Shown here: positions 27,224 to 49,529 of the stretch, in pieces
How the letters are laid out: every line of letters starts with the position of its first letter
Position numbering within the stretch: the stretch's first letter is position 1
NCBI GenBank assembly: GCA_965228005.1
Contig: CBDDGV010000003.1
Location: 828,244 to 892,243 of the forward strand
DNA from: Lacipirellulaceae bacterium
GTDB taxonomy: Bacteria; Planctomycetota; Planctomycetia; Pirellulales; Lacipirellulaceae
Direction of reading: 5' to 3'
DNA length: 64,000 nucleotides
Made by a program: the position numbers and the translations under genes
Notes under the pieces: generated by a model
Seen by the model: the letters and a program-made list of their open reading frames with translations, nothing else
What the model was told of the DNA's origin: nothing
Database searches by the model: none

Positions 27224-29230
27224 ATGAAACGAGAGCGTCGGCTGCAGCCGCCCCGAGTCAAAACCGACCAGCTTAGGCAATGCCTGGTAGTCCCGGGTTC
27301 GTGGCCTTGTGAGGTGCTCCTGGCCGCTGTTCTGTTGCTCGGCGCCGGTTCCCACCAGTCGTCCGCCGACGTATTCACAAACGTCGCGGAAGCGACCAAC
27401 GACGGGTACGAGCTGATCTACACGCTGCCGATCCCCGATTCGGCTTCGTTCAGCTCCACCAGCGTCATCCCGTTCTTGGTAGACAACTCCGCCAGCTTCG
27501 CCAACACGCCGTTTGATCGCGTGGCTTACTACTTGGAACTAGCCGGCGGCCAAGGACTCACTTACGCGTACACCTCTATGGACGCCTTTTCGACCAACCT
27601 CAGCGATATCGGTTTGCCAGCCGATGGGCAGCTTTTCCAGCAGAACGTGTCGAACCTAAACGTCTTCTCTAACTCAACCTCGTTAACGACCGGCATCGGG
27701 ATTTCCACGGGAAACATCGAGTTCTGGAACACCAACTACGGCACCGCGAACAGCGCGGGTGTTCCCGGCGCGAACGACGGGACGTACGACTTTGGAGACA
27801 GCGTCTCCGGCAACGGGAGCTACTCGTCGTTCCAGGTGCACAACCACGGAGCCGGGGAGACGATCATCGCGTACAACCAGTGGGCCGGATTCAACCCGAA
27901 TGCGGACAGCGACCTGGGCATTGGGAACAGACCCGTCGGGAACCCCGATTGGACGTTCTCGCAGAGCGCCGGGTCGTACTCGGTCAAGAACCTGCAGGTC
28001 TTGATCAGACCGTCGGGCCTTTCGGTCGACTCTTCCCTGCAGCGCGCAATCTTCCAACGCAACTACCAGAACTCCGCGACGATCCCCCTCCAGGGCCAGG
28101 TGGACGCCTCGGCGGCCGTCTCCATTGAGGCCCGGGCCGTCCCGCGCGCCGGCTACTCGGGGGTCGCGACCGGATGGGTCACGGTCGATTCCAGCCTTCA
28201 GTCCGGCTCATGGGACGGGGCGCTTGATCTGCTGGCGGGTTGGTACGACATCGAAGTCCGGTCGATCGATGGGGGCGGCAACGTCGTTGACCAGCAGTCC
28301 GTCAATCGCGTCGGCGTTGGCGAAGTCTTCGTGGTCGCCGGGCAGTCCAACTCCGCGAACTACGGCAACCCGACGCTCTCCGCGCAGGACGACCGCGTCT
28401 CTGCGTTCGATCTAACGAACTGGCAGAAGGCCAACGACCCCATGCCAGTAGCCGACGGCTCAGGTGGTTCTCCTTGGCCGGCGCTCGGCGATATGCTCAC
28501 CGAGGAGTGGGACGTTCCCGTAGGGTTCGTGTCGGTCGGGTGGGGCGGAACCTCCGCCGCGCAATGGGAGCCCGGGGCCACCGGGCCGGACGCCGAGCCG
28601 CTCTACAACCGACTTCAAGACGCGCTAACCGCCCTCGGCCCCGACGGCGCCCGAGCCGTACTTTGGCACCAAGGTGAGGCTGACAACGCCTTCAACACGT
28701 CTGCGGTTGCATACGAAGCTTCGCTCGAGACGATCATCGCACAGTCGCGTGTCGACGCGGGTTACGACGTGCCGTGGGGAATCGCGCTGGCCTCATTCAT
28801 TTCACTGGGCAACCCCAACGACCCCAATATCACCGCCGCCCAGCAGAAGGTCGTCGACGACGACCCGCTAAACTTCCTCGGAGCCGCGACAGACGACCTT
28901 GGCGGCCCGGCATGGCGGTGGGACGGCATCCACTTCAACGAGCCCGGTCTCCGCGAACACGCGCAGCGCTGGTTCGACCAACTCCTAGCGTCACTTGAGT
29001 TCCCCACTCCGACCCCCGGCGACTACGACGGCGACGGAGACACGGACATCGCAGACCTCATGAGATGGCAAAGAAACGACGGATCAGCCGCAGGCCTGGA
29101 TGCCTGGCGGACCGGAGCCGGGGCGGGCGGCACATCAACGCAATCCGCCTCCGCCGTACCAGAACCACTCAGTATTTGGGGCATTGTCGGCGCCGCCCTT
29201 TGCCTGGCACATGACAGGCGGCGCCGCTAA
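27224..29230 (+). CDS. SASA-type carbohydrate esterase with PEP-CTERM anchor
   Basis: VFVVAGQSNSANYG and LWHQGEADN motifs. C-terminus GDYDGDGDTDIADLMRWQRNDGSAAG ... VPEPLSIWGIVGAALCLAHDRRRR. Confidence 0.65.
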   Translation: MKRERRLQPPRVKTDQLRQCLVVPGSWPCEVLLAAVLLLGAGSHQSSADVFTNVAEATNDGYELIYTLPIPDSASFSSTSVIPFLVDNSASFANTPFDRVAYYLELAGGQGLTYAYTSMDAFSTNLSDIGLPADGQLFQQNVSNLNVFSNSTSLTTGIGISTGNIEFWNTNYGTANSAGVPGANDGTYDFGDSVSGNGSYSSFQVHNHGAGETIIAYNQWAGFNPNADSDLGIGNRPVGNPDWTFSQSAGSYSVKNLQVLIRPSGLSVDSSLQRAIFQRNYQNSATIPLQGQVDASAAVSIEARAVPRAGYSGVATGWVTVDSSLQSGSWDGALDLLAGWYDIEVRSIDGGGNVVDQQSVNRVGVGEVFVVAGQSNSANYGNPTLSAQDDRVSAFDLTNWQKANDPMPVADGSGGSPWPALGDMLTEEWDVPVGFVSVGWGGTSAAQWEPGATGPDAEPLYNRLQDALTALGPDGARAVLWHQGEADNAFNTSAVAYEASLETIIAQSRVDAGYDVPWGIALASFISLGNPNDPNITAAQQKVVDDDPLNFLGAATDDLGGPAWRWDGIHFNEPGLREHAQRWFDQLLASLEFPTPTPGDYDGDGDTDIADLMRWQRNDGSAAGLDAWRTGAGAGGTSTQSASAVPEPLSIWGIVGAALCLAHDRRRR

Positions 29231-31447: not shown

Positions 31448-32596
31448 CTACAGCAGGTTGACCACACGGTCGGCGAGGCCCTTCTCGCCGAGCACGACGT
31501 TGAGCTTGCCGCTCGTGGCGACCTTCTCCAGGACCTCAAGTTCCCGGAGACGCATCAGCGTCGTGTTGTCGGCGAGCAGGCGGGCCGTGTTGGCCTGCGA
31601 CCGCATCGCGGCCGTCTCCTCGCGTCGGGCGATCAGGTTCGCCTCGGCGGCCTTCTTGGCCTCCGTCACTCGGTTGAGCAGGACCTTCATGTCGCCCGGC
31701 AGGATCACGTCCTTGACGCCCACCGAAACGACTTCCAGACCCAGCTCACCCGACCGGCGACGGACCGACTCGGCGAACTCGTCCGTGACGGCGTCCTTGT
31801 CCGTCAGGAACGCGTCCAGGTCGCGCGTCGCCACGACCGCACGCAGAGCCAGCTGCGCCTCGCGGTACAGCGACTGCTTCGCGCCGTCGGCCACGGTGAC
31901 CGCCTGCCGCGCGTCGACCACGCGGTAGGTAACCACGGCGTTCATCCGCAGCGTGACCTTGTCGGCGGTCATGATTTCCTGACCGGCGACATCGAGGGTC
32001 TGCTCACGGAGGTCGACCTCGACCACCTTCGCGTCGGCTGTGCGCCGCCAGTACGCGTACTGGCCCGGCGGCAGCGTCTCGACGAAGCTGCCGTCGTAGA
32101 ACACGACGCCGACCGAGTTCCGCGCAACCGTGCAGATGTCGAGCACCTGCGAGGCGTACGGGCTGCCGAGCACACGGTTGAGGTCCTTGTGACGGAAGCG
32201 GACCTCGCCGGCGTCGACGACCTCGACACGCACGTCCTTCTCGCCGGTCCAGTACGCGTACAGGCCCGGCGGCAGGATGTGGCTGAAGCGGCCCTCGATC
32301 CAGACCAGGCCGCGGTCGTTGTCCTTGAGGTCCACGACCACCGCCTCGCCTTCCAGGGCGCCGCTCTTCACGATCGCCTCGAGTTCGTCGTGCGCCAGCC
32401 AAGGGTCGCGACGCGACACGACATCGACCCGCACCTTCCACGACGGGGCCTTCAGCCAGTGCCGCCCGCGGGTGAGCAGGCCCTGGAACTCGCCGTCTCG
32501 GAAGTAGAGGCCTACTTCGTAGCTACGAATCTTGACTCGCTTGTAAAACGTCATGGGAGGCCTCCTTTCTGTGGCCAAGGGGTTGGGTGCACTCAA
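31448..32596 (-). CDS. SPFH/band-7 (HflC/stomatin-like) family protein
   Basis: 382 aa with an SPFH-like central region. N-terminal repeated GxYAYW motifs. The 3' 400 nt are duplicated at 9983-10433. Confidence 0.7.
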   Translation of the reverse strand: MSAPNPLATERRPPMTFYKRVKIRSYEVGLYFRDGEFQGLLTRGRHWLKAPSWKVRVDVVSRRDPWLAHDELEAIVKSGALEGEAVVVDLKDNDRGLVWIEGRFSHILPPGLYAYWTGEKDVRVEVVDAGEVRFRHKDLNRVLGSPYASQVLDICTVARNSVGVVFYDGSFVETLPPGQYAYWRRTADAKVVEVDLREQTLDVAGQEIMTADKVTLRMNAVVTYRVVDARQAVTVADGAKQSLYREAQLALRAVVATRDLDAFLTDKDAVTDEFAESVRRRSGELGLEVVSVGVKDVILPGDMKVLLNRVTEAKKAAEANLIARREETAAMRSQANTARLLADNTTLMRLRELEVLEKVATSGKLNVVLGEKGLADRVVNLL

Positions 32597-32996: not shown

Positions 32997-33071
32997 TGGT
33001 GGGGGGTGCGGGAGTCGAACCCGCGACAGCCAGATTAACAGTCTGGTGCTCTACCACTGAGCTAACCTGGT
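32997..33071 (-). tRNA. tRNA-Asn(GTT)-like with encoded CCA; acceptor strands not complementary, likely a pseudogene
   Basis: Perfect T-arm gcggg/cccgc, D-arm gctc..gagc and AC loop ctgttaa. The 5' acceptor accaggt cannot pair with 3' acccccc. Confidence 0.4.
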
Positions 33072-33193
33072 GGCGATCTGACGTTGGCCATCCTAGAACC
33101 CATGCACGGAACACGCCCGCCCAACCGAACCAAGCGGGGACGGACGCGCCGCTGGCCCGGCACGTCAAAACCTTGCTTGTAGATCGTTCTAAG

Positions 33194-33265
33194 AGACGCC
33201 GGTGGGAGTCGAACCCACTTCAAACCGGGTTGCAGCCGGTTGCCTCGCCGTCGGGCTCCAGCGTC
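33194..33265 (-). tRNA. tRNA-Cys(GCA)
   Basis: AC arm accgg-ctgcaac-ccggt. U73 discriminator. 7-bp acceptor with one G-U pair. 3-bp D-stem. Confidence 0.6.
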
Positions 33266-33288
33266 TTCGTTGTCACTGAAAGTGTCAG

Positions 33289-33360
33289 CAGCCTGTCCAG
33301 GAGTTGAACCTGATCCTCGACCTTCGCAGGGTCGCGTGCGATCCGCCACACCCACAGGCT
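33289..33360 (-). tRNA. tRNA-Arg(GCG)
   Basis: AC arm cgacc-ctgcgaa-ggtcg. Acceptor agcctgt/acaggct perfect. Confidence 0.6.
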
Positions 33361-33364
33361 GTAG

Positions 33365-33437
33365 TACCTCGCCAGGGAATCGAACCCCGTCTTGCAGATT
33401 CGAAGTCTGCCGTGCTCGTCCGTCACACTCGCAAGGC
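33365..33437 (-). tRNA. tRNA-Arg(TCG)
   Basis: AC arm gcaga-cttcgaa-tctgc. D-stem gtgt/gcac. Confidence 0.6.
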
Positions 33438-33469
33438 GTCGTAGCCCGTCCAGGAATCGAGGGGCTGGT

Positions 33470-33530
33470 CAACTCTACCGCGTGCCGCCTTCATCCTCCC
33501 TCGCCGGTCGGCGGCGTCACTTGCTTCCAA
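33470..33530. repeat. Conserved ~60-nt element, copy A (second copy at 37262-37316)
   Basis: ctaccgcgtgYcgcct...tcctccctNNccggtcggcggcgWcacttgctYcc is shared by both loci. Contains the hairpin cgccg-gtcgg-cggcg. Not foldable as a tRNA. Confidence 0.5.
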
Positions 33531-33580
33531 CAGCTTCGGAAGCTGACATGCGCTCCGGCACACCCACGGGCCGTACTCAG

Positions 33581-33652
33581 CATCTCGACCTGGGGTCGAA
33601 CCAGGACCTGGGCTTTAGGAGAGCCCCGTGCGGTCCATTACACTATCGAGAT
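33581..33652 (-). tRNA. tRNA-Arg(CCT)
   Basis: AC arm gggct-ctcctaa-agccc. Acceptor perfect. Confidence 0.6.
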
Positions 33653-33656
33653 GTGG

Positions 33657-33730
33657 GGCCGACGGCTGGATTCGCACCAGCATGATCCGGTTTACAAGAC
33701 CGGCGCCTTTCTAGGTCGAGCCACGTCGGC
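33657..33730 (-). tRNA. tRNA-Thr(TGT)
   Basis: AC arm ccggt-cttgtaa-accgg. T-loop variant tgcgaat. Confidence 0.55.
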
Positions 33731-33734
33731 ACAG

Positions 33735-33803
33735 CAGGAGTGCAAGGAATCGAACCCTGCTCGGCGGTTTTGGAGGCCGCTTGCTTCCCAGAAGCACACT
33801 CCT
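33735..33803 (-). tRNA. tRNA-Trp(CCA) with an unusually short D-arm
   Basis: AC loop ctccaaa. Acceptor aggagtg/cactcct perfect. D region is only 16 nt. Confidence 0.5.
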
Positions 33804-33813
33804 GTAGTTCGAG

Positions 33814-33887
33814 GGCATCCGGAGGGATTCGAACCCTCACTTCCTGCTTCACAGGCAGGCGTGCGTACCGTGTACACCTCGGACACC
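33814..33887 (-). tRNA. tRNA-His(GTG) with encoded G-1
   Basis: AC arm cctgc-ctgtgaa-gcagg. Extra 5' G opposite C73, as expected for bacterial tRNA-His. Confidence 0.65.
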
Positions 33888-33921
33888 ATAAGTTGGGCCG
33901 CCGTCGCCGACGGCCCAACAG

Positions 33922-34722
33922 TCAGTCGATGAACGCCACGTGCCGCATGGCCGCCGAGTCGGTCTCGGTGTTCAACAGCACCTGACGCCACTCCTTCAGC
34001 ACGATCGTCTTGTGATCGGCGTGCCGTACCTTGCCGCGTACGAAGACCAGAGGGTTCCGCTTCTGGGTGACCCAGTGCAGGTTCCGCATCTTCGGCCGAC
34101 GGCTGATCAGCTGACGGTACTGCTCGACGGTCAAGCCGTTCGGACGCGCGTTGCTGACGTAGACGGTCTCGCCGCCCTGACGCACCAACTCGTCGACCAT
34201 GTGCGGCTTGCCGCCGCCGCGGATCAGCGGCTCGTTCCGCAGGATCAGCCTCTCGTCGACCCGCACCCACCGTGGGACCGGGACGAAGAACCACTCACCC
34301 TGGCGGACGAACGCCTCGTTGCGACGGCGGTTCCGCTTCCTCCGCTTGACCTTCAGCTCGTCCTGCCGACGCCGGACCGGCAGCGGCTTCAACGCCTCCA
34401 TCGCCGTAATGACATTGGAGGCGCCCGCCCGCTCCGGCACCGCGGCGACGAACCAGTGACGCTCGTCGTGGCCGCATAGGAACTTGTGCTTCCCGTCCGA
34501 ATCACGGGACATCAGCAGCAAGTGCCGCTCCCGCGGCCGCGTATCGACGACCTGCAGCTCCCGCTCACGACCGGGCAGGACCGAAACGCCGAAGAACTCG
34601 CCCTCGGCGTCCGACCCGATGTCGATCGATACGCTGCTCTGCAGCCGCCTCGATACGCTAACGTCAACCTTGGCACGCGCGCCGATCTTGGCGAAGTGCC
34701 GCTCAATCAAGTGCGCGTTCAT
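33922..34722 (-). CDS. hypothetical protein embedded in the tRNA array (267 aa, basic K/R-rich centre)
   Basis: ORF on the same strand as the tRNAs, with no overlap of neighbouring tRNAs when started at MNAHLIERHF. Contains FLCGHDERHWFVAAVPE and KVKRRKRNRRRNEAF. No family recognised. Confidence 0.5.
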   Translation of the reverse strand: MNAHLIERHFAKIGARAKVDVSVSRRLQSSVSIDIGSDAEGEFFGVSVLPGRERELQVVDTRPRERHLLLMSRDSDGKHKFLCGHDERHWFVAAVPERAGASNVITAMEALKPLPVRRRQDELKVKRRKRNRRRNEAFVRQGEWFFVPVPRWVRVDERLILRNEPLIRGGGKPHMVDELVRQGGETVYVSNARPNGLTVEQYRQLISRRPKMRNLHWVTQKRNPLVFVRGKVRHADHKTIVLKEWRQVLLNTETDSAAMRHVAFID

Positions 34723-34757
34723 AGGAACGTCCTCCAGGAAACAGAAAACAAAACCAG

Positions 34758-34842
34758 CGGAAGGAGAGGGAGTCGAACCCTCAAGGCAGTGAAGCTCCAC
34801 CGGCTTCCAACCGGGTCCCGTCGCCCATCGGGTAGCCCTTCC
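34758..34842 (-). tRNA. tRNA-Ser(GGA), type II
   Basis: 85 nt. AC loop ttggaag. Long variable arm. G73. Confidence 0.55.
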
Positions 34843-34850
34843 GTACCCAG

Positions 34851-34940
34851 TAGCCCGACCAGGATTCGAACCTGGCCCCGTCACTCAGCAAACGCGGCTC
34901 GTTAGAAGCGAGGGATGATCGTCCGTTTCACCATCGAGCC
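34851..34940 (-). tRNA. type II (long variable arm) tRNA with apparent anticodon TCT; identity ambiguous
   Basis: 90 nt, A73, 21-nt variable arm. AC loop cttctaa closed by a 4-bp stem plus a C-C mismatch. Confidence 0.4.
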
Positions 34941-34963
34941 AAACTCTTTTTTGCAAACGCAAG

Positions 34964-35053
34964 CGGAAGGCATGGGATTCGAACCCACATGCCGCGAGTG
35001 AGGCGGCTCCGCATTAGCAGTGCGGCCCGGCGAGCCGTATCCGGCTGCCTTCC
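34964..35053 (-). tRNA. tRNA-Ser(GCT), type II
   Basis: 90 nt. AC arm ccgca-ctgctaa-tgcgg. G73. Acceptor perfect. Confidence 0.6.
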
Positions 35054-35061
35054 GTGTTTAG

Positions 35062-35150
35062 TGGACCCACTGGGAATCGAACCCACCGCGTTCCCCTAAG
35101 GACGTAGGCCGACCTGCCGAGCCGGTGTCGTCCCGTTGGACCATGAGCCC
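35062..35150 (-). tRNA. type II tRNA-like gene, anticodon unresolved (Leu-like D-arm)
   Basis: 89 nt. Acceptor pairs with G-U wobbles. D-arm resembles tRNA-Leu. AC loop tcggcag has no U33. Confidence 0.35.
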
Positions 35151-35161
35151 TCGTGTGGAGT

Positions 35162-35234
35162 GGACCGGAAGGGAATCGAACCCTTCGCACCGACTTTGCA
35201 AGAGTCAGTCGCCCCCTTGGAACATGCCAGCCCA
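35162..35234 (-). tRNA. tRNA-Ala(TGC)
   Basis: G3:U70 in the acceptor. AC loop cttgcaa. A73. D-arm non-canonical. Confidence 0.55.
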
Positions 35235-35243
35235 TTCTCTGAG

Positions 35244-35314
35244 AGGTCCGTCCGGGAATTGAACCCGGTCCTCGTCCTTACCACGGACGCGTGCGGCCGA
35301 AACACTTACAGACC
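35244..35314 (-). tRNA. tRNA-Thr(GGT)
   Basis: AC arm cgtcc-gtggtaa-ggacg. Confidence 0.55.
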
Positions 35315-35320
35315 ATCGAG

Positions 35321-35393
35321 TGATCCCGGATGGAATCGAACCATCTATCTCCTGGGTGTCATCCAGGCGTCGTAGCCGTTGGACCACGGGATC
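35321..35393 (-). tRNA. tRNA-Val(GAC)
   Basis: AC arm cctgg-atgacac-ccagg. Acceptor perfect. Confidence 0.55.
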
Positions 35394-35398
35394 GTCAG

Positions 35399-35474
35399 TG
35401 ACCAGGGTGGGAGTCGAACCCACAAAATCACCAGGCTCTCGACCTGGTCGCTTTGCCAGTTTGCGTACCCAATC
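35399..35474 (-). tRNA. tRNA with Leu-type anticodon GAG on a short-variable-arm scaffold (atypical)
   Basis: AC arm ccagg-tcgagag-cctgg. 7-nt variable region. D-arm ta-cgc-aaactggcaa-agcg. A73. Confidence 0.35.
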
Positions 35475-35482
35475 ATGGGAAG

Positions 35483-35550
35483 TAGCGGGTCCGGGAGTCG
35501 CACCCGACGGTCCAGGCTTATGAGGCCCGGCTGAGCCTGGCTCACCCGCA
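35483..35550 (-). tRNA. tRNA-Met(CAT)-like with 1:72 mismatch and aberrant D-arm
   Basis: AC arm cgggc-ctcataa-gcctg. U1-U72 unpaired. D region is only ~14 nt. Confidence 0.35.
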
Positions 35551-35557
35551 TCAGCAG

Positions 35558-35658
35558 TAGCCAAGGGGCCGCGTATTCAGGGAAACGGGGCGAACTCCCA
35601 CGCCACAAGTGGCACGACATTCTGAGTGTCGCGTGTCTACCTGTTCCACCACTTGGCT
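35558..35658 (-). tRNA. tRNA-Leu(CAG)-like, type II, atypical T region
   Basis: AC arm cgaca-ctcagaa-tgtcg. Variable hairpin gccac-aa-gtggc. Leu-like D-arm tg-gtg-gaacaggtaga-cac. Acceptor agccaag/cttggct. Confidence 0.4.
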
Positions 35659-35665
35659 GTATCAG

Positions 35666-35736
35666 TAGCCCGTACGGGAATCGAACCCGTGCCGCGAGTT
35701 TGAGGGACTCGCATCCTGCCGCTAGACCAACGGGCC
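35666..35736 (-). tRNA. tRNA-Glu(CTC)
   Basis: Glu-like D-arm tg-gtc-tagcggcagga. AC loop ccctcaa with C33. Confidence 0.5.
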
Positions 35737-35749
35737 TCTCTCGTGTCAG

Positions 35750-35831
35750 TGCGCCGGGCAGGAGTTGAACCTGCACAGCCCGAAGGCGGGTGGGTTACAG
35801 CCACTGGGGCTCGCCGATGCCCAGCCGACGC
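35750..35831 (-). tRNA. tRNA-Tyr(GTA), type II
   Basis: 82 nt. AC loop ctgtaac. D-stem gggc/gccc. Long variable region. Confidence 0.55.
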
Positions 35832-35846
35832 ATGAGTTGTTGCCAG

Positions 35847-35923
35847 TAGCACGGGTGGGAGTCGAACCCACAAACTGTCACGAAGGTTTGAGCTTCGTCG
35901 CTTTGCCGTTTGCGTACCGTGCC
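35847..35923 (-). tRNA. tRNA with Leu-type anticodon CAA on a short-variable-arm scaffold (atypical)
   Basis: AC arm cgaag-ctcaaac-cttcg. 9-nt variable region. A73. Confidence 0.4.
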
Positions 35924-35931
35924 GGATCGAG

Positions 35932-36006
35932 CGTCCCCGGCGGGATTTGAACCCGCGTCCTCCACCGTGACAGGGTGGCGAGCACTCCAGGCTGCTCCAC
36001 GAGGAC
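35932..36006 (-). tRNA. tRNA-Asp(GTC)
   Basis: AC arm ccacc-ctgtcac-ggtgg. G73. D-stem gagc/gctc. Confidence 0.6.
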
Positions 36007-36014
36007 CTGTTGAG

Positions 36015-36088
36015 TGGCTCAGGTGGGATTCGAACCCACAGCATCCTCGGGTTTAAGCCAAGGTGGTCTGCCGATTGCCTACCGAGCC
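36015..36088 (-). tRNA. tRNA with Leu-type anticodon TAA on a 74-nt type I scaffold (atypical)
   Basis: AC arm cttgg-cttaaac-ccgag. 6-nt variable region. A73. Confidence 0.4.
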
Positions 36089-36109
36089 GCCCGTTCACTT
36101 GCTTGTGAG

Positions 36110-36182
36110 TACCCAAAGCAGGATTCGAACCTGCAAACACCTGATCCTAAGTCAGGCCGCTCAGCCGTTGGCGTATCTGGGC
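36110..36182 (-). tRNA. tRNA with Leu-type anticodon TAG on a 73-nt type I scaffold (atypical)
   Basis: AC arm cctga-cttagga-tcagg. 5-nt variable region. A73. Confidence 0.4.
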
Positions 36183-36194
36183 ATCGCATCGAAG

Positions 36195-36267
36195 TAGTCC
36201 TGGGTGGACTCGAACCACCGATCTTCTTCTTGTAAGGAAGCCGCCTTTGCCGCTAGGCCACAGGACT
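36195..36267 (-). tRNA. tRNA-Val(TAC)
   Basis: AC loop cttacaa. Acceptor agtcctg/caggact perfect. D-stem gcct/aggc. Confidence 0.55.
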
Positions 36268-36366
36268 GAAAACCACAGTGCTTTAGCAAAAGTTGACCTA
36301 CTCGCATTTGCTTGCTAACCTTTGCTGGGCGCAGCGGAACAGTACTTGGAAACAGCGGTCGAGCCA

Positions 36367-37044
36367 ATGAAACGCTACCTACTTCTGTTCATATTCACCT
36401 CTCAATCAGTTTGTTTTTCTAGCAGTCTGATACTTGACCAATCGTTTGAATGGGAATCACCAGCACACTATGGTGGTTTCGGTTCAGCCTCCATGGGAAA
36501 AAGGCAAGCCCAAACCTTTACAGTTGGAGTTACAGGATCATTGCGTCGCATTGAGATTGCTGTTCGTCCGGAAGGCGAGCGTGAAGAAATGAACACAGAT
36601 CAAATTGAAATCTTTCTTGTGCAAACGGTGTCTGGATTACCAAACCTAAACCCGGCTAGTATGTTGGCATCAAGTTCAGAAACCATTCCGACTCCGGGTT
36701 CAGTACTCGTCCAGGGTGGGGAAAACAATAGGTTCCAGGACTTCCATTGGGCACAGTTCGACCTACCTCCAACAAGTGTGGTGTCTGGCGAACTCCTTGC
36801 AATCGTCTTGTCTACCGAAATCAATCATGGGTATCATTGGGCAGCAAGTTTTCCCGGATCATATTTATACGGTCGTGGGCTAAGAGGCTCTTCGGAAGGT
36901 ATATATGCTGAACCTCCGATTAACTTTCAGCATCGCGACTGGTTGTTTCGAACCTATGTCGTTCCGATTCCAGAGCCATCAGGAGCGCTATTGCTGGCTT
37001 TGGGAACAATTACTTTATGCGCCATCAGGAAGCGCCGAAGTTGA
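36367..37044 (+). CDS. PEP-CTERM protein, low-GC (foreign-looking) gene inside the tRNA array
   Basis: MKRYLLLFIFTSQSVCFSS signal. Ends VPIPEPSGALLLALGTITLCAIRKRRS. Coding sequence is AT-rich relative to the ~65% GC surroundings. Opposite strand to the tRNAs. Confidence 0.55.
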   Translation: MKRYLLLFIFTSQSVCFSSSLILDQSFEWESPAHYGGFGSASMGKRQAQTFTVGVTGSLRRIEIAVRPEGEREEMNTDQIEIFLVQTVSGLPNLNPASMLASSSETIPTPGSVLVQGGENNRFQDFHWAQFDLPPTSVVSGELLAIVLSTEINHGYHWAASFPGSYLYGRGLRGSSEGIYAEPPINFQHRDWLFRTYVVPIPEPSGALLLALGTITLCAIRKRRS

Positions 37045-37060
37045 TTCGATTTCTAGGGAA

Positions 37061-37122
37061 CTGCGGGGGTTGGAATCGAACCAATCCCAGCGCGCCCCGT
37101 CCTACCGTTGAACGACCCCGCA
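37061..37122 (-). tRNA. truncated tRNA-like gene lacking an anticodon arm (pseudogene)
   Basis: Perfect 7-bp acceptor tgcgggg/ccccgca, D-arm and T-arm present. Only 12 nt sit in place of anticodon arm plus variable region. Confidence 0.4.
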
Positions 37123-37140
37123 TAAGTTATCTCCCTCTAG

Positions 37141-37215
37141 TTCCGGGGGTAGGAATCGAACCTACGGACTCCTGGTTCAAAGCCAGGCAACACTACCAGC
37201 AGCGTCGACCCCGGA
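37141..37215 (-). tRNA. tRNA-Gln(TTG)
   Basis: AC arm cctgg-ctttgaa-ccagg. Acceptor perfect. Confidence 0.55.
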
Positions 37216-37261
37216 ATGCTTCCATCAAGAGAGTGCCCTGCGGGAGTCGGCCGCTCCACGA

Positions 37262-37316
37262 AGGACTACCGCGTGTCGCCTCGCTCCTCCCTACCGGTCG
37301 GCGGCGACACTTGCTC
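37262..37316. repeat. Conserved ~60-nt element, copy B (see 33470-33530)
   Basis: ctaccgcgtgtcgcctcgctcctccctaccggtcggcggcgacacttgctccc. Confidence 0.5.
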
Positions 37317-37425
37317 CCGCCTCGCCTGGTTGGAAGCCCGGAGCCTCTGCCGCTCGGCCAACGGAAGCAACCGAGCACGGCTGACTCAACGTCAGCCGAG
37401 CGCAGGGCGGTAGCTCTCAGAAAAG

Positions 37426-37513
37426 CGGAAGGAGTGAGAGTCGAACTCACAAGGCGCGCGTGGCGCTCGACTGCTTTCGAGGCAGCTGCCATCGCCCATT
37501 GGCTTGCCCTTCC
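37426..37513 (-). tRNA. type II tRNA-like gene with Ser(GGA)-like acceptor and abnormal (6- or 8-nt) anticodon loop
   Basis: Acceptor ggaagga/cccttcc identical to the tRNA-Ser(GGA) at 34758. Anticodon hairpin ctcga-aagcag-tcgag. Confidence 0.35.
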
Positions 37514-37521
37514 GTTTGGAG

Positions 37522-37593
37522 CACCGGTGGGAGGACTCGAACCTCCACTCGTCGGCTTAACAGGCCGCCGCCTTACCGTTTGGCCACACCGGT
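37522..37593 (-). tRNA. tRNA-Asn(GTT)
   Basis: AC loop ctgttaa. Acceptor accggtg/caccggt perfect. Confidence 0.55.
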
Positions 37594-37602
37594 TCATGTG
37601 AG

Positions 37603-37676
37603 TCAGGACGGCTGGATTCGAACCAGCGGTCTCGTGCGCCCGAGGCACGCGGAATACCAGGCTTTCCCACGCCCTG
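37603..37676 (-). tRNA. tRNA-Pro(CGG)
   Basis: AC arm cgtgc-ctcgggc-gcacg. D-stem ggaa/ttcc. Confidence 0.55.
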
Positions 37677-37683
37677 AATCGAA

Positions 37684-37754
37684 TGCGCCCAGCCGGAATC
37701 GAACCGACACACCCTGCATGGCGAGCAGGAAGGCTGCCACTACATCATGGGCGC
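37684..37754 (-). tRNA. tRNA-Gly(GCC)? (C33 in loop)
   Basis: AC arm cctgc-tcgccat-gcagg. Acceptor gcgccca/tgggcgc perfect. Confidence 0.4.
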
Positions 37755-37807
37755 AAAACAATGCGAATTAAGTTGTCAAAGAACGCGGAACGACCGGCCG
37801 TTCCGAG

Positions 37808-37879
37808 AGCACCGGGAGGGATTCGAACCCACGTAGCCGCTGTACGAGAGCGGAGTCTTTGCCTCTAGACGACCAGTGC
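37808..37879 (-). tRNA. tRNA-Thr(CGT)
   Basis: AC arm ccgct-ctcgtac-agcgg. Confidence 0.55.
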
Positions 37880-37889
37880 TTGTTGTCAG

Positions 37890-37962
37890 TGGGACCAGAG
37901 GGACTCGAACCCTCACCCGCCTGGGTAAGAACCAGGGATGCTGCCGCTAACACCTCAGTCCC
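37890..37962 (-). tRNA. tRNA-Lys(CTT)
   Basis: AC arm cctgg-ttcttac-ccagg. Confidence 0.55.
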
Positions 37963-37977
37963 AAAACCGTCTCGCAG

Positions 37978-38050
37978 TTGGCGCGGGAGGAATTGAACCC
38001 CCGACCCACGACTTATAAGGTCGTCGCTCTCACCACTGAGCTACGCGCCA
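37978..38050 (-). tRNA. tRNA(TAT), AUA-decoding tRNA-Ile2-like
   Basis: Fully canonical cloverleaf. Acceptor tggcgcg/cgcgcca. D-arm ta-gctc-agtggtga-gagc. AC arm acgac-cttataa-gtcgt with U33 and A37. Confidence 0.6.
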
Positions 38051-38069
38051 TGAAAGGGGGCGCAAGCAG

Positions 38070-38141
38070 TGGGGCCGGAGGGATTCGAACCCTCACCGTG
38101 CGGATTAAAAGTCCGTCGTGCAGCCGTTACACCACAGCCCC
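38070..38141 (-). tRNA. tRNA-Lys(TTT)
   Basis: AC loop cttttaa. Acceptor pairs with one G-U. Confidence 0.55.
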
Positions 38142-38223
38142 GAGGTCTGGGTTGGGCGTATCGGTTTGCGTCGGCGGACAGTCGACATCGTGTTGCTCCT
38201 AGTGGTTCGCGAAGTGCCGTGAG

Positions 38224-38295
38224 TGGTAGTCCTGGGAATCGAACTCAGCGCCGCGGTCTTATCAGGACCACTTGGGCAACCAGCCCTCGACTACC
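38224..38295 (-). tRNA. tRNA-Ile(GAT) (array copy, distinct from the chromosomal copy at 49397)
   Basis: AC loop ctgataa. Acceptor ggtagtc/gactacc perfect. Confidence 0.55.
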
Positions 38296-38299
38296 GTGA

Positions 38300-38392
38300 G
38301 TCGGGCGCCTCGGGGTCGAACCGCCGTGTCCCTTAGCAAACGGGGCTCCTGCTCCCAAAAGCAGGCGTGCTCCCATCTGCACCTCCGCCCGG
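38300..38392 (-). tRNA. type II tRNA-like gene with an 8-nt anticodon loop ttttggga (Pro UGG-like plus one U)
   Basis: AC arm cctgc-ttttggga-gcagg. Long variable hairpin. Weak T-stem. Confidence 0.3.
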
Positions 38393-38401
38393 TGTTTTCA
38401 G

Positions 38402-38475
38402 TCAGAACGGTCGGATTCGAACCGACGGCCTCTTGGCCCCCAGCCAAGCGCGATACCTAGCTTCGCCACGTTCTG
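38402..38475 (-). tRNA. tRNA-Pro(GGG)
   Basis: AC arm cttgg-ctggggg-ccaag. Acceptor cagaacg/cgttctg perfect. Confidence 0.55.
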
Positions 38476-38484
38476 ATTGGTCAG

Positions 38485-38556
38485 CACCCCGTGAGGGAAT
38501 CGAACCCTCATCTGCGGATTGAAAGCCCGCCATCCTCGCCGTTAGACCAACGGGGC
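38485..38556 (-). tRNA. tRNA-Glu(TTC)
   Basis: AC loop ctttcaa. Glu-like D-arm tg-gtc-taacggcgagg. Confidence 0.55.
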
Positions 38557-38610
38557 GTGTCGTGTCTCCTTGTGCGCGCACCGGGTGCGCACGGTGTCTC
38601 TGAAACCCAG

Positions 38611-38682
38611 TGGGCCGGGAGGCGCTCGAATCCTCGTCTGCGGTTCTTCAGACCGCCGCTATACCGTCTCAGCTACCAGCCC
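38611..38682 (-). tRNA. tRNA-Phe(GAA)
   Basis: AC arm gcggt-ctgaaga-accgc. D-stem gctg/tagc. Confidence 0.55.
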
Positions 38683-38721
38683 TAATGGTCGTGGGGTCGG
38701 CCTCTTCGATCGGCAGGAGCC

Positions 38722-38759
38722 AAAGAAAAAGGCCCGGCGTCTGTCTGACACCGGGCCTT
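38722..38759 (-). terminator. intrinsic terminator-like hairpin for minus-strand transcripts arriving from the NUDIX gene
   Basis: ggcccgg...ccgggcc stem followed, on the minus strand, by TTTTTCT. Confidence 0.35.
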
Positions 38760-39054
38760 GTGGCTCATCAAAGAGTCCAGCCGAGTGTCATGTGCGCCTT
38801 GGTTCGCAGGCGGGCGCGTACCCAGGCTTATCGTTCGCCGGTTGGGCGAGCGGCAAGCCGGCGGTATTCGCCGTATGCGATGAGCGTATGAAACTCAGCT
38901 GTAACATGGTTCCGTCTCCGGAGAGGGTTGCTTCTTTTCAACTCTACCCGCTTTTCACGCCGCGGGTCGCGTCTAGGTAACTATAGACGACATAAACCGG
39001 GTCAGGTTCACAGGCTTTCTTGGAAAAAACCACAAATCCGTTTTGGCTCGGAAC

Positions 39055-39483
39055 TCAGCCGCCGCAGTCGGTCTGCAGTGCGCCGAGAAGTGCGTCCAGA
39101 ATCTCGGCCAACGACGGAGCCAAGAGTTGTCTGGCTTCTTCGAAGCCGACGACCAGGCGCTCTCGAGTTGCTTGCTCCTCCCACTCCTCGAGCAGGCTCT
39201 CCACGGCGAGAGGGTAGATGTCGATGCGTGCGAGGCCGCCCCATTTCTCCTGCTCGTAAGTCCCGAGTGCCTCTCCGGTGATCCGTCCGACGACGCCCGC
39301 CTCTTCCTGGGCTTCTTTCACCGCGGTTGATTCCGGCGTCTCCCCGGGGTCGATCACCCCCTTCGGGAAAATCCACTTCCCCGATGACCTGGACGTGATG
39401 AGGACAATCTCCAGCCCAACGCCGTCCTGCAGGTACGGCAGACCCCCGGCCTGACGGAACAAGAAGTCCGGTTTCTTCGCCAA
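39055..39483 (-). CDS. NUDIX hydrolase
   Basis: Nudix box GKWIFPKGVIDPGETPESTAVKEAQEEAGV. Confidence 0.75.
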   Translation of the reverse strand: MAKKPDFLFRQAGGLPYLQDGVGLEIVLITSRSSGKWIFPKGVIDPGETPESTAVKEAQEEAGVVGRITGEALGTYEQEKWGGLARIDIYPLAVESLLEEWEEQATRERLVVGFEEARQLLAPSLAEILDALLGALQTDCGG

Positions 39484-39726
39484 ATCGAGTCCTCCTGAAG
39501 TTGGGAACGATTTGCAAGCTTCTCGAACAGTTTAGAGGCAATACCAACGCTGTCACTGACCAACAGGCACATTGGTAGATCTCCGACGAGGACTTCGAGA
39601 AGGACTCAACAGACCGCTGCCAACCGCGTAGCAGCAGGCAGCCAGTTGGGCTCGCATAGCAAAGGAGGGCGAGCGTGCACGAGAGCCGACGAGCCCTGTC
39701 TAGCCGGCCGAAGAGGAGAGATTCAG

Positions 39727-39800
39727 TGGGCGACACTGGATTCGAACCAGTGACCTCTGCGGTGTGAACACAGCGCTCTAACCAACTGAGCTAGCCGCCC
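39727..39800 (-). tRNA. tRNA-Val(CAC), intact; its 3' 42 nt are repeated at 9747-9788
   Basis: Canonical cloverleaf gggcggc-ta-gctcagttggttagagc-g-ctgtg-ttcacac-cgcag-aggtc-actgg-ttcgaat-ccagt-gtcgccc-a. Confidence 0.85.
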
Positions 39801-49396: not shown

Positions 49397-49470
49397 GGGC
49401 GTGTAGCTCAGTTGGTTAGAGCGCAGCCCTGATAAGGCTGAGGTCCCAAGTTCGAATCTTGGCACGCCCA
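49397..49470 (+). tRNA. tRNA-Ile(GAT), chromosomal copy
   Basis: gggcgtg-ta-gctcagttggttagagc-g-cagcc-ctgataa-ggctg-aggtc-ccaag-ttcgaat-cttgg-cacgccc-a. Confidence 0.85.
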
Positions 49471-49529
49471 CTCCTGTTTTCTGTCTCCTGTCTCCCGTCT
49501 CCTGGGGTCCGAAGCTCCCTCCGATTCGA

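Follow-up and report, generated by a model that had tools for sequence, protein, structure and literature searches.

Short-armed leucine tRNA genes in a long tRNA array of a Lacipirellulaceae bacterium

A stretch of 64,000 nucleotides (nt) from a Lacipirellulaceae bacterium of the Planctomycetota (assembly GCA_965228005.1, contig CBDDGV010000003.1, positions 828,244 to 892,243), called the window below, carries a dense tRNA array in which four genes with the leucine anticodons GAG, CAA, UAA and UAG lack the long variable arm of type II tRNAs. In textbooks and in most tRNA annotation logic, this arm is diagnostic of bacterial tRNA-Leu. The four genes are genuine tRNAs, probably kept by selection, which would serve as leucine-charged, supernumerary isoacceptors of a long tRNA array (L-array); we infer their leucylation, expression and use in translation from conserved sequence features and from known relatives. 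The window array is an L-array that may have spread horizontally, related to the tRNA arrays of phages and cyanobacteria, and the short-armed (type I) tRNA-Leu that it carries is an under-noticed but not unique class.

Structure and conservation of the short-armed genes

ARAGORN and the Rfam tRNA model RF00005 agree on all four genes (Table 1), whose Rfam matches of 39.8-53.7 bits span model positions 1-71, the gathering score of the model being 29. According to Rfam and ARAGORN, the variable region has 7 nt in Leu(GAG), 9 nt in Leu(CAA) (UGACAGUUU), 5-6 nt in Leu(UAA) and 5 nt in Leu(UAG). Regions of 7-9 nt exceed the textbook 4-5 nt, yet they are too short for an arm, and all four genes are of type I, with a variable region of at most about 10 nt and no extra stem-loop. 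The anticodons occupy positions 34-36 of 7-nt loops in the ARAGORN parses, the discriminator base is A73 in all four genes and CCA is encoded in none of them. A preliminary description, made from the letters of the stretch, had reported four short-armed genes with A73 and variable regions of 5-9 nt, and both detectors bear this out; its coordinates hold, with the correction that the genes lie on the minus strand.

The D-arm UA-CGC-AAAC(N)GGCAA-AGCG, described earlier as shared by the four genes, is common to Leu(GAG) and Leu(CAA) and is found in an altered form in Leu(UAG), while Leu(UAA) has a D-arm of its own (UA-GGC-AAUCGGCAG-ACC). Leu(GAG) has the anticodon loop UCGAGAG, with C33 and A37, and an acceptor stem with three G-U pairs. 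Leu(CAA) and Leu(UAG) both begin with a G1-U72 pair, and Leu(UAG) also has G37. The D stem of Leu(UAA) is weak, with 2-3 base pairs (GG/CC plus a C-A mismatch), and position 15 of this gene is U.

The minimum-energy fold is a cloverleaf for Leu(CAA) and Leu(UAG) and not for Leu(GAG) and Leu(UAA), as might be expected if the short-armed structure were a mis-fold or an annotation artefact, the true structure being long-armed or the anticodon lying elsewhere. Thermodynamic folding is weakly informative for these genes (z-scores of -1.5 to -2.6), and the cloverleaf of all four rests on covariation. When the short-variable-region cloverleaf is imposed on 129 ARAGORN-selected type I Leu sequences, which are less than 88% identical to one another and were aligned with MAFFT, standard pairs fill 97.3% of the cells against 65.9% after shuffling (a level that none of 500 shuffles reaches), covariation scores 0.826 against 0.205, and 19 of the 20 pairs have changed on both sides. 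Sliding the 3' partners by 1-3 columns makes the score fall to 0.08-0.14. A count made directly on the ARAGORN parses gives 98.1% paired against 70.7%, a figure that is too high, since sequences without a cloverleaf fold go unreported by ARAGORN. The same kind of change is seen between the window Leu(UAG) and the Leu(UAG) of a viral locus (L005), which have nearly the same acceptor, D and T arms and an anticodon stem that differs by fully compensated changes. Two independent detectors thus concur, covariation supports the register, and neither the covariance model nor the covariation places a long variable arm in any of the four genes, so that a mis-fold, which the preliminary description had itself allowed for, is hardly credible.

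Relatives of these genes are widespread. A pattern built from the D-arm and T loop of the flagged genes, scanned on viral contigs, finds 19 loci, nearly all of them tRNA arrays with tRNA-Leu genes of 73-81 nt and several anticodons. BLAST matches in cultured phages include two tRNA-Leu genes of the Mycobacterium phage Wildcat (74 and 73 nt) and two of the Acinetobacter phage Acibel004 (77 nt each); phage homologues of this kind, which have been in GenBank since 2006, are annotated simply as tRNA-Leu. A narrower pattern, scanned on one genome per species, finds at least 119 loci. The matched genomes are overwhelmingly from Planctomycetota (Pirellulales, Planctomycetaceae, Gemmataceae, Isosphaeraceae and Thermoguttaceae); among the matches listed, the cultured genera are Stieleria, Rubripirellula, Rhodopirellula, Aporhodopirellula, Novipirellula and Maioricimonas, and the matches outside the phylum are a few cyanobacteria, myxobacteria and one metagenome-assembled genome (MAG) of a Lachnospiraceae bacterium. 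A search of the region against PLSDB plasmids with blastn returned tRNA-Asp-like matches and no informative Leu match.

In nearly every genome locus 10-38 tRNAs per 8 kb form an array, in which a set of Leu genes recurs, namely GAG of about 77 nt, CAA of 75-80 nt, UAG of 73-75 nt, UAA of about 75 nt and a type II CAG of about 85 nt. The conservation in related genomes that the preliminary description had proposed to check is therefore present, as nearly all loci of the at least 119 species genomes, mostly of Planctomycetota, have the same Leu set, and the gene order is conserved (Val, Leu-UAA, Leu-UAG, Asp, Leu-CAA, Tyr, Glu, type II Leu-CAG, Met, Leu-GAG, Val, Thr, Ala, with further genes on either side). 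The array DNA of the relatives is 70-77% identical to that of the window, and the gene order is kept nonetheless. The trn operon of Nostoc (Anabaena) PCC 7120, the single L-array examined by experiment, also has four short Leu genes, UAA of 75 nt, GAG of 78 nt, UAG of 75 nt and CAA of 78 nt; in this organism the array lies in the last 6 kb of the delta plasmid, the first 50 kb of which have no tRNAs. The presence of related Leu genes in phages, cyanobacteria, myxobacteria and the Lachnospiraceae MAG would fit horizontal spread. Within Planctomycetota, gene order and neighbours (a 266-residue open reading frame, ORF, and a Band_7 gene) are conserved, which fits a long vertical residence as well.

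Among individual relatives, Leu(GAG) and Leu(CAA) of the window are 93% and 95% identical to the gag and caa genes of one related locus (L079), and the body of Leu(CAA) is close to a viral Leu(CAG) (L008). The nearest relatives of the window Leu(UAA), 92-93% identical to it, bear UAG, so the UAA anticodon has switched within the leucine box. The nearest genome relatives of Leu(UAG) bear UAA, and the gene is 85% identical to the viral Leu(UAG) of L005. Of 74 unique type I Leu(GAG) sequences, 53 share the unusual C33, which occurs in L015, L016 and L017 as well as in many genome loci but hardly at all in the other Leu isoacceptors.

These comparisons also bear on whether the four genes are decaying pseudogenes in an array that is the dead relic of a prophage or of another transferred element. 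Several features of the array would suit such decay: the neighbouring type II Leu(CAG) is disrupted, a tRNA fragment without acceptor stem lies at 33005-33067, three array genes carry insertions, a foreign ORF (36322-37044) interrupts the array, and Leu(GAG) scores merely 39.8 bits. The four genes themselves, however, retain all stems, are 82-95% identical to their orthologues against the 70-77% of the array DNA overall, and have substitutions in stems that are compensatory. Their oddities (C33, the 9-nt variable region and G1-U72) recur across genomes and are not private to the window. Decay of the four copies is quite unlikely on these grounds.

Leucine identity and the expected use of the genes

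Leucine identity in Escherichia coli and Aquifex is reported to depend on A73, A14, A15-U48 and the placement of G18G19 (PMC6614811). Among 287 unique type I Leu sequences, A73 is present in 281 (98%), U8-A9 in 92% and a D stem of 3 base pairs in 91%, and the variable region has 4-9 nt by the ARAGORN count, which omits up to one base. In the aligned sequences A14 is invariant, and U8, A15, G18, G19, U48 and A73 are each conserved in at least 90%. The tertiary core of U8-A14, A15-U48 and G18G19, with a large D loop and a 3-bp stem, is found throughout the window genes with the exception of Leu(UAA), which has U15 and a stem of 2-3 bp. Positions 13 and 22 are unpaired in 96% of the type I Leu sequences, whose D region has 17 nt, and the type II Leu of the arrays have nearly the same values (98% and 17 nt), which set the type I Leu apart from most other isotypes.

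Position-specific isotype profiles, built from about 2500 array tRNAs with the anticodon and the window left out, assign the four genes to the same class: their type I Leu scores are +14 to +42 bits, and the profiles of all other isotypes give negative values. The first version of this classifier, which had no type II Leu profile, recovered the isotype assigned by the anticodon for 26 of 28 window tRNAs. When 2127 other tRNAs (141 loci) are tested in reverse, 8 have a type I Leu score above zero, and none of normal length exceeds 5 bits. Five of these eight have the same body with an insertion of about 20 nt, and three are cyanobacterial tRNA-Gln genes, which have the type I Leu D-arm with U1-A72 and G73. 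Apart from the five insertion-bearing variants, no type I Leu body with a non-leucine anticodon exists among the 2127. The type II CAG body is also found with CAA, UAA and AAG anticodons. A charging enzyme blind to the anticodon, together with selection for the delivery of leucine, would lead to just such moves of the anticodon within the leucine box. An expected second-best score of the type I body on the type II Leu profile was not borne out, and the claimed resemblance of the two bodies is therefore reduced to the layout of the D loop.

The preliminary description had considered that the genes might be non-canonical tRNAs of hybrid identity. On this reading the leucine anticodon would sit on a body charged by another synthetase and cause mistranslation, a discord known from bacterial tRNA-ProX/ProA and nematode nev-tRNAs. 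Odd tRNAs do occur in such arrays, and the window has Arg(UCU), Ala(GGC) and Pro-like genes with long variable arms; a different, Asn/Lys-like body bears Leu anticodons in L085, L087 and L132; the three cyanobacterial tRNA-Gln genes share the type I Leu D-arm; and the aberrant gel mobility of the operonic Phe and Ile tRNAs of Nostoc left misacylation open. The four genes, however, are negative on every other isotype profile, the normal-length body never occurs with a non-Leu anticodon, and the Gln genes that share the D-arm have the identity elements of Gln, U1-A72 and G73, which indicates that identity follows the anticodon. SerRS requires a long arm, and G3:U70 occurs in none of the 287 type I Leu sequences. 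Most synthetases read the anticodon, the bacterial exceptions being LeuRS, SerRS and AlaRS alone (PMC11028032). Hybrid identity of the four genes is very unlikely in the light of these data.

Leucine isoacceptors kept by selection thus account best for the genes, and their use can be outlined in four steps. The array would be transcribed and its tRNAs cut out, with CCA not encoded and C-U following nearly every gene. The host LeuRS would then recognise A73 together with a Leu-type D-arm and elbow, which comprises U8-A14, A15-U48, G18G19 in a loop of 10-11 nt including positions 13 and 22, a 3-bp D stem and the unpaired 13:22; the long arm would not be needed. The charged tRNAs would decode CUN and UUR codons as leucine, and the array Leu tRNAs would form a supernumerary or back-up set beside housekeeping type II tRNAs. 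With 64 kb of this genome in view, the housekeeping type II set is presumed. Hints of a dispersed set are the lone tRNA-Ile on the plus strand of the window (49397-49471) and, in a related genome (L044), a canonical type II Leu(GAG) that stands by itself at a distance of 3 kb from the array.

This outline has experimental precedents. One is the type I tRNA-Leu(CAA) of Streptomyces coelicolor, which has a short variable loop of 5 nt, is leucylated and exists beside type II tRNA-Leu and a single LeuRS (Fan et al. 2019, PMC6614811). The kcat/Km of this enzyme is 6.25 s^-1 uM^-1 for the type I tRNA against 14.2 for type II, about 44% (PMC6614811), and the long arm is dispensable for some bacterial LeuRS enzymes (PMC6614811). 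Of the 26 tRNAs of the Nostoc trn operon, 23 carry amino acids in vivo and associate with polysomes (PMC8421152). With four short Leu genes in the operon and just three pseudogenes, one or more of the short Leu tRNAs must be charged. L-arrays in Planctomycetes have been reported as horizontally acquired, supernumerary sets. The statement in the preliminary description that bacterial tRNA-Leu is universally type II fails on the Streptomyces gene, and also on the annotated short tRNA-Leu of Wildcat, Acibel004 and the Nostoc operon.

Several points weigh against this interpretation. Charging of the four genes and expression of planctomycete arrays are argued by analogy. The type I tRNA-Leu of S. 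coelicolor was not charged by the LeuRS of E. coli; charging is therefore a matter of the particular enzyme, and a fit with the planctomycete LeuRS is conjectural. The type I profile is unlike the type II Leu profile in sequence, their likeness being one of layout, and the 129 sequences used for covariation come from the same ARAGORN selection as the inflated count. Position 33 of Leu(GAG) is C where U is near-universal, and the acceptor stem of this gene is weak; in Leu(UAA) position 15 is U and the D stem has 2-3 bp; most CUN readers in the arrays carry A37 and not G37. The text of PMC8421152 leaves the three Nostoc pseudogenes unspecified, and a degenerate T arm is seen in the Leu(GAG) of Nostoc. 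The L-arrays that were studied are almost silent under standard conditions (PMC8421152).

Some of these points would also suit tRNA-like RNAs that act outside translation, as decoys or sponges for toxins, as regulatory RNAs or as donors for non-ribosomal aminoacyl transfer. The array is probably mostly silent (PMC8421152), C33 in Leu(GAG), A37 in CUN readers and partial 3' ends are ill-suited to efficient decoding, and conserved protein genes annotated without function are embedded in the array. A decoy, however, needs neither strict leucine-box anticodons nor a near-complete, ordered set of about 38 anticodons that spans nearly all amino acids, and the operonic tRNAs of Nostoc are charged and present on polysomes. 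A role of the four genes outside translation is accordingly unlikely.

The array and its other genes

The array includes 36 tRNAs called by ARAGORN on the minus strand, about 5.4 per kb, most of which are confirmed by Rfam, and it falls within the definition of an L-array (at least 20 tRNA genes, at least 2 per kb, co-oriented). Its flanks are typical of Planctomycetota, with a DUF1559 protein bearing a methylation motif at its N-terminus, C-termini of the PEP-CTERM type and an ExbB-like protein, and the GC content is about 65%. No phage genes were recognised near the array among the window ORFs and their family matches. Coordinates are collected in Table 1.

Table 1. Features of the tRNA array and its surroundings, in window positions
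Feature	Positions	Strand	Evidence
tRNA-Leu(GAG), type I	35399..35474	-	ARAGORN, Leu(gag) 35398-35474; Rfam RF00005, 39.8 bits (E=1e-5)
tRNA-Leu(CAA), type I	35847..35923	-	ARAGORN, Leu(caa) 35846-35923; Rfam RF00005, 49.1 bits
tRNA-Leu(UAA), type I	36015..36088	-	ARAGORN, Leu(taa) 36014-36088; Rfam RF00005, 43.2 bits
tRNA-Leu(UAG), type I	36110..36182	-	ARAGORN, Leu(tag) 36109-36182; Rfam RF00005, 53.7 bits
tRNA array holding the four Leu genes, about 36-38 co-oriented tRNA genes	33193..39800	-	ARAGORN, Rfam
Degenerate type II tRNA-Leu(CAG)	35558..35658	-	alignment to intact orthologues of L029 and L025; synteny
Non-canonical tRNA-Met(CAU)-like gene	35487..35548	-	sequence; homologues called tRNA-Met in L025, L072 and others
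Embedded 266-residue protein gene (from M55 of the ORF)	33922..34722	-	ORF; tblastn
SPFH/Band 7 gene adjoining the array, downstream	31448..32596	-	Pfam PF01145, E=1e-29
tRNA-Arg(UCU) with insertion	34850..34940	-	
tRNA-Ala(GGC) with insertion	35061..35150	-	
tRNA-Pro(UGG)-like gene with insertion	38300..38391	-	ARAGORN (anticodon 'ttgg')
Partial tRNA	33005..33067	-	Rfam, 57 bits, model positions 5-66
tRNA-Ile(UAU)	37977..38050	-	Rfam, 71 bits
PEP-CTERM-type ORF	36322..37044	+	
Terminator-like hairpin	38759..38729	-	
tRNA-Val(CAC)	39726..39800	-	
tRNA-Ile, apart from the array	49397..49471	+	ARAGORN

The only type II Leu of the array is the Leu(CAG) that the preliminary description had pointed out as a separate gene. 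It is homologous to the intact type II Leu(CAG) genes of 84-86 nt in related arrays, but its T arm, loop and stem, is broken by an insertion of about 22 nt and by mismatches, so that the gene is damaged; neither ARAGORN nor Rfam calls it. Between it and Leu(GAG) lies the tRNA-Met(CAU)-like gene, of about 67-70 nt, whose D arm is minimal and lacks G18G19 and whose T loop reads UGCGACU instead of UUCRANU. Its sole Rfam match is weak and is to Tymo_tRNA-like, but its position in the order Leu(CAG)-Met-Leu(GAG) is kept in other genomes, often with two tandem copies.

The 266-residue protein encoded within the array has tblastn matches inside the arrays of at least ten loci and at least 7465 homologues in public data, all of them unnamed; in L143 it also lies between tRNA genes. 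It has no match in Pfam, PHROG or NCBIfam, and its AlphaFold model, which is confident (pLDDT 82.6), has no fold match in the PDB. An enzymatic or nucleic-acid-binding role is suggested by residues that are invariant in the protein (His, Asp, Glu, Arg and Trp). Homologues of the SPFH/Band 7 protein, 57-69% identical, flank or interrupt the arrays in at least seven loci (L119, L132, L114, L134, L113, L087 and L143).

The Arg(UCU), Ala(GGC) and Pro(UGG)-like genes have 90-92 nt, with variable-region insertions of 17-20 nt that are absent from their orthologues in other arrays, and are long-armed versions of tRNAs that are normally of type I. The Pro(UGG)-like gene also has an anticodon loop of 8 nt, and the Ala(GGC) gene has C33. 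A hairpin of about 20 nt (GACCAMCGC-TGCG-GCGKCGGTG and variants) recurs in tRNAs of differing isotypes and genomes, giving genes of 90-97 nt. It is placed in the variable region in L046, L047, L108, L122 and L129, and is also found in the anticodon loop of type I Leu bodies in L122, L116 and L071; a small mobile insertion or a grafted arm could account for it.

The partial tRNA at 33005-33067 has an Asn(GUU)-type loop and no pairing acceptor stem. The same body bears the leucine anticodons UAA, AAG and CAA in L085, L087 and L132, and these copies would be better candidates for hybrid identity than the four flagged genes. The tRNA-Ile(UAU) has the highest score of all Rfam matches and the same position in related arrays. 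A tRNA-Ile with the anticodon UAU is rare in bacteria.

The discriminator base is directly followed by C-U in 97% of the window array tRNAs and in 80% of 2167 genes of the genome loci L022-L140, while in viral loci C74 is nearly always encoded, often with the full CCA. This C-U trailer suggests a specific mode of 3'-end processing. A strong terminator-like hairpin, with a stem of 13 bp (9 of them G-C) and a T run behind it, sits a short way upstream of tRNA-Phe, which opens the conserved array order; the hairpin separates tRNA-Val(CAC) from the core array. A promoter scan found sites no more common than in shuffled sequence, and no promoter was assigned. The PEP-CTERM-type ORF that breaks the array, on the opposite strand, has a local GC content of 55% against about 63% and no homologue in the other array loci, and it looks like a later insertion. 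A further ARAGORN call in the window, an 85-nt tRNA-Ala(ggc) at 28529-28613 on the minus strand, is probably a false positive, as it lies inside a SASA-esterase ORF (27224-29230) and has no Rfam tRNA match.

Relation to known tRNA-Leu and tRNA arrays

The window genes are further members of an existing family, and it is the family-level pattern that fills a modest but real gap in the literature searched. A lineage of armless tRNA-Leu, with four to five isoacceptors each, is standard in the long tRNA arrays of Planctomycetota, cyanobacteria and many phages, and it carries a conserved signature of its own. In the searched literature the only bacterial short-arm tRNA-Leu was the Streptomyces gene, which is described as rare (PMC6614811), and no statement was found that tRNA arrays or phage clusters systematically carry armless tRNA-Leu; Puerto-Galan & Vioque 2012 and Pope et al. 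2014 may mention it. The family bears on tRNA annotation and isotype models, on substrate recognition by LeuRS across phyla and on the purpose of L-arrays and phage tRNA sets, and Stieleria, Rubripirellula, Rhodopirellula and Nostoc 7120 are natural, cultivable test systems.

A speculative and rather doubtful extension, drawn by analogy, is that the loss of the arm is an adaptation by which phage and array Leu tRNAs escape factors of the host or of competitors that recognise the type II arm. Phage tRNAs are known to evade anticodon nucleases through mutations in the loop (PMC10264068), and precedents for arm-dependent targeting are MenT3 and SLFN11. If the idea were true, the escape would be aided further by C33 in Leu(GAG) and by A37 in the CUN readers, and an L-array would be a toxin-resistant spare set for translation.

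The window array is like the L-arrays described by Tran et al. 2016 (PMC4758250) and Santamaria-Gomez et al. 2021 (PMC8421152), which are long, dense and co-oriented, cover most amino acids, and are reported in Planctomycetes, Cyanobacteria and other phyla; the text of both papers has no mention of a short variable arm. The Nostoc trn operon has the same four short Leu anticodons (UAA, GAG, UAG and CAA), in genes that are about 50-57% identical to those of the window and differ from them in U8-G9 and in D stems like those of type II Leu. The planctomycete arrays, unlike that of Nostoc, have their own conserved gene order and embedded protein genes.

Phage tRNA-Leu genes, such as those of Wildcat, Acibel004 and many IMG/VR contigs, share the length of 73-77 nt, the type of D-arm, A73 and a 5-nt variable region (UGUUU), and their arrays have 20-37 tRNAs. 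CCA is encoded in many phage copies, whereas the window genes end in C-U and lie in a chromosomal planctomycete context. The tRNA-Leu of animal mitochondria is also an armless leucine tRNA with A73, but it belongs to another lineage, in which mitochondria have a LeuRS of their own and the tRNA elbow is relaxed, whereas genes of the window type retain the canonical G18G19 and a TPsiC-type T loop (UUCGAMU).

The nev-tRNAs and tRNA-ProX/ProA likewise pair a tRNA class and an anticodon in a non-canonical way and were found by genome mining. In those tRNAs the clash between body and anticodon leads to mistranslation, whereas in the window genes body, discriminator and anticodon are all those of leucine and the arm alone is missing. 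By description the genes also resemble the S. coelicolor case, in which a bacterial leucine anticodon is likewise found on a tRNA with a short variable loop. There it belongs to a single essential housekeeping gene with one anticodon, whereas the presumably supernumerary array has four isoacceptors here and up to five in relatives; the variable loop has 5 nt in S. coelicolor, and 5 nt but also 7-9 nt in the window; and A73, which is not an identity element in S. coelicolor (PMC6614811), is 98% conserved in the array family.

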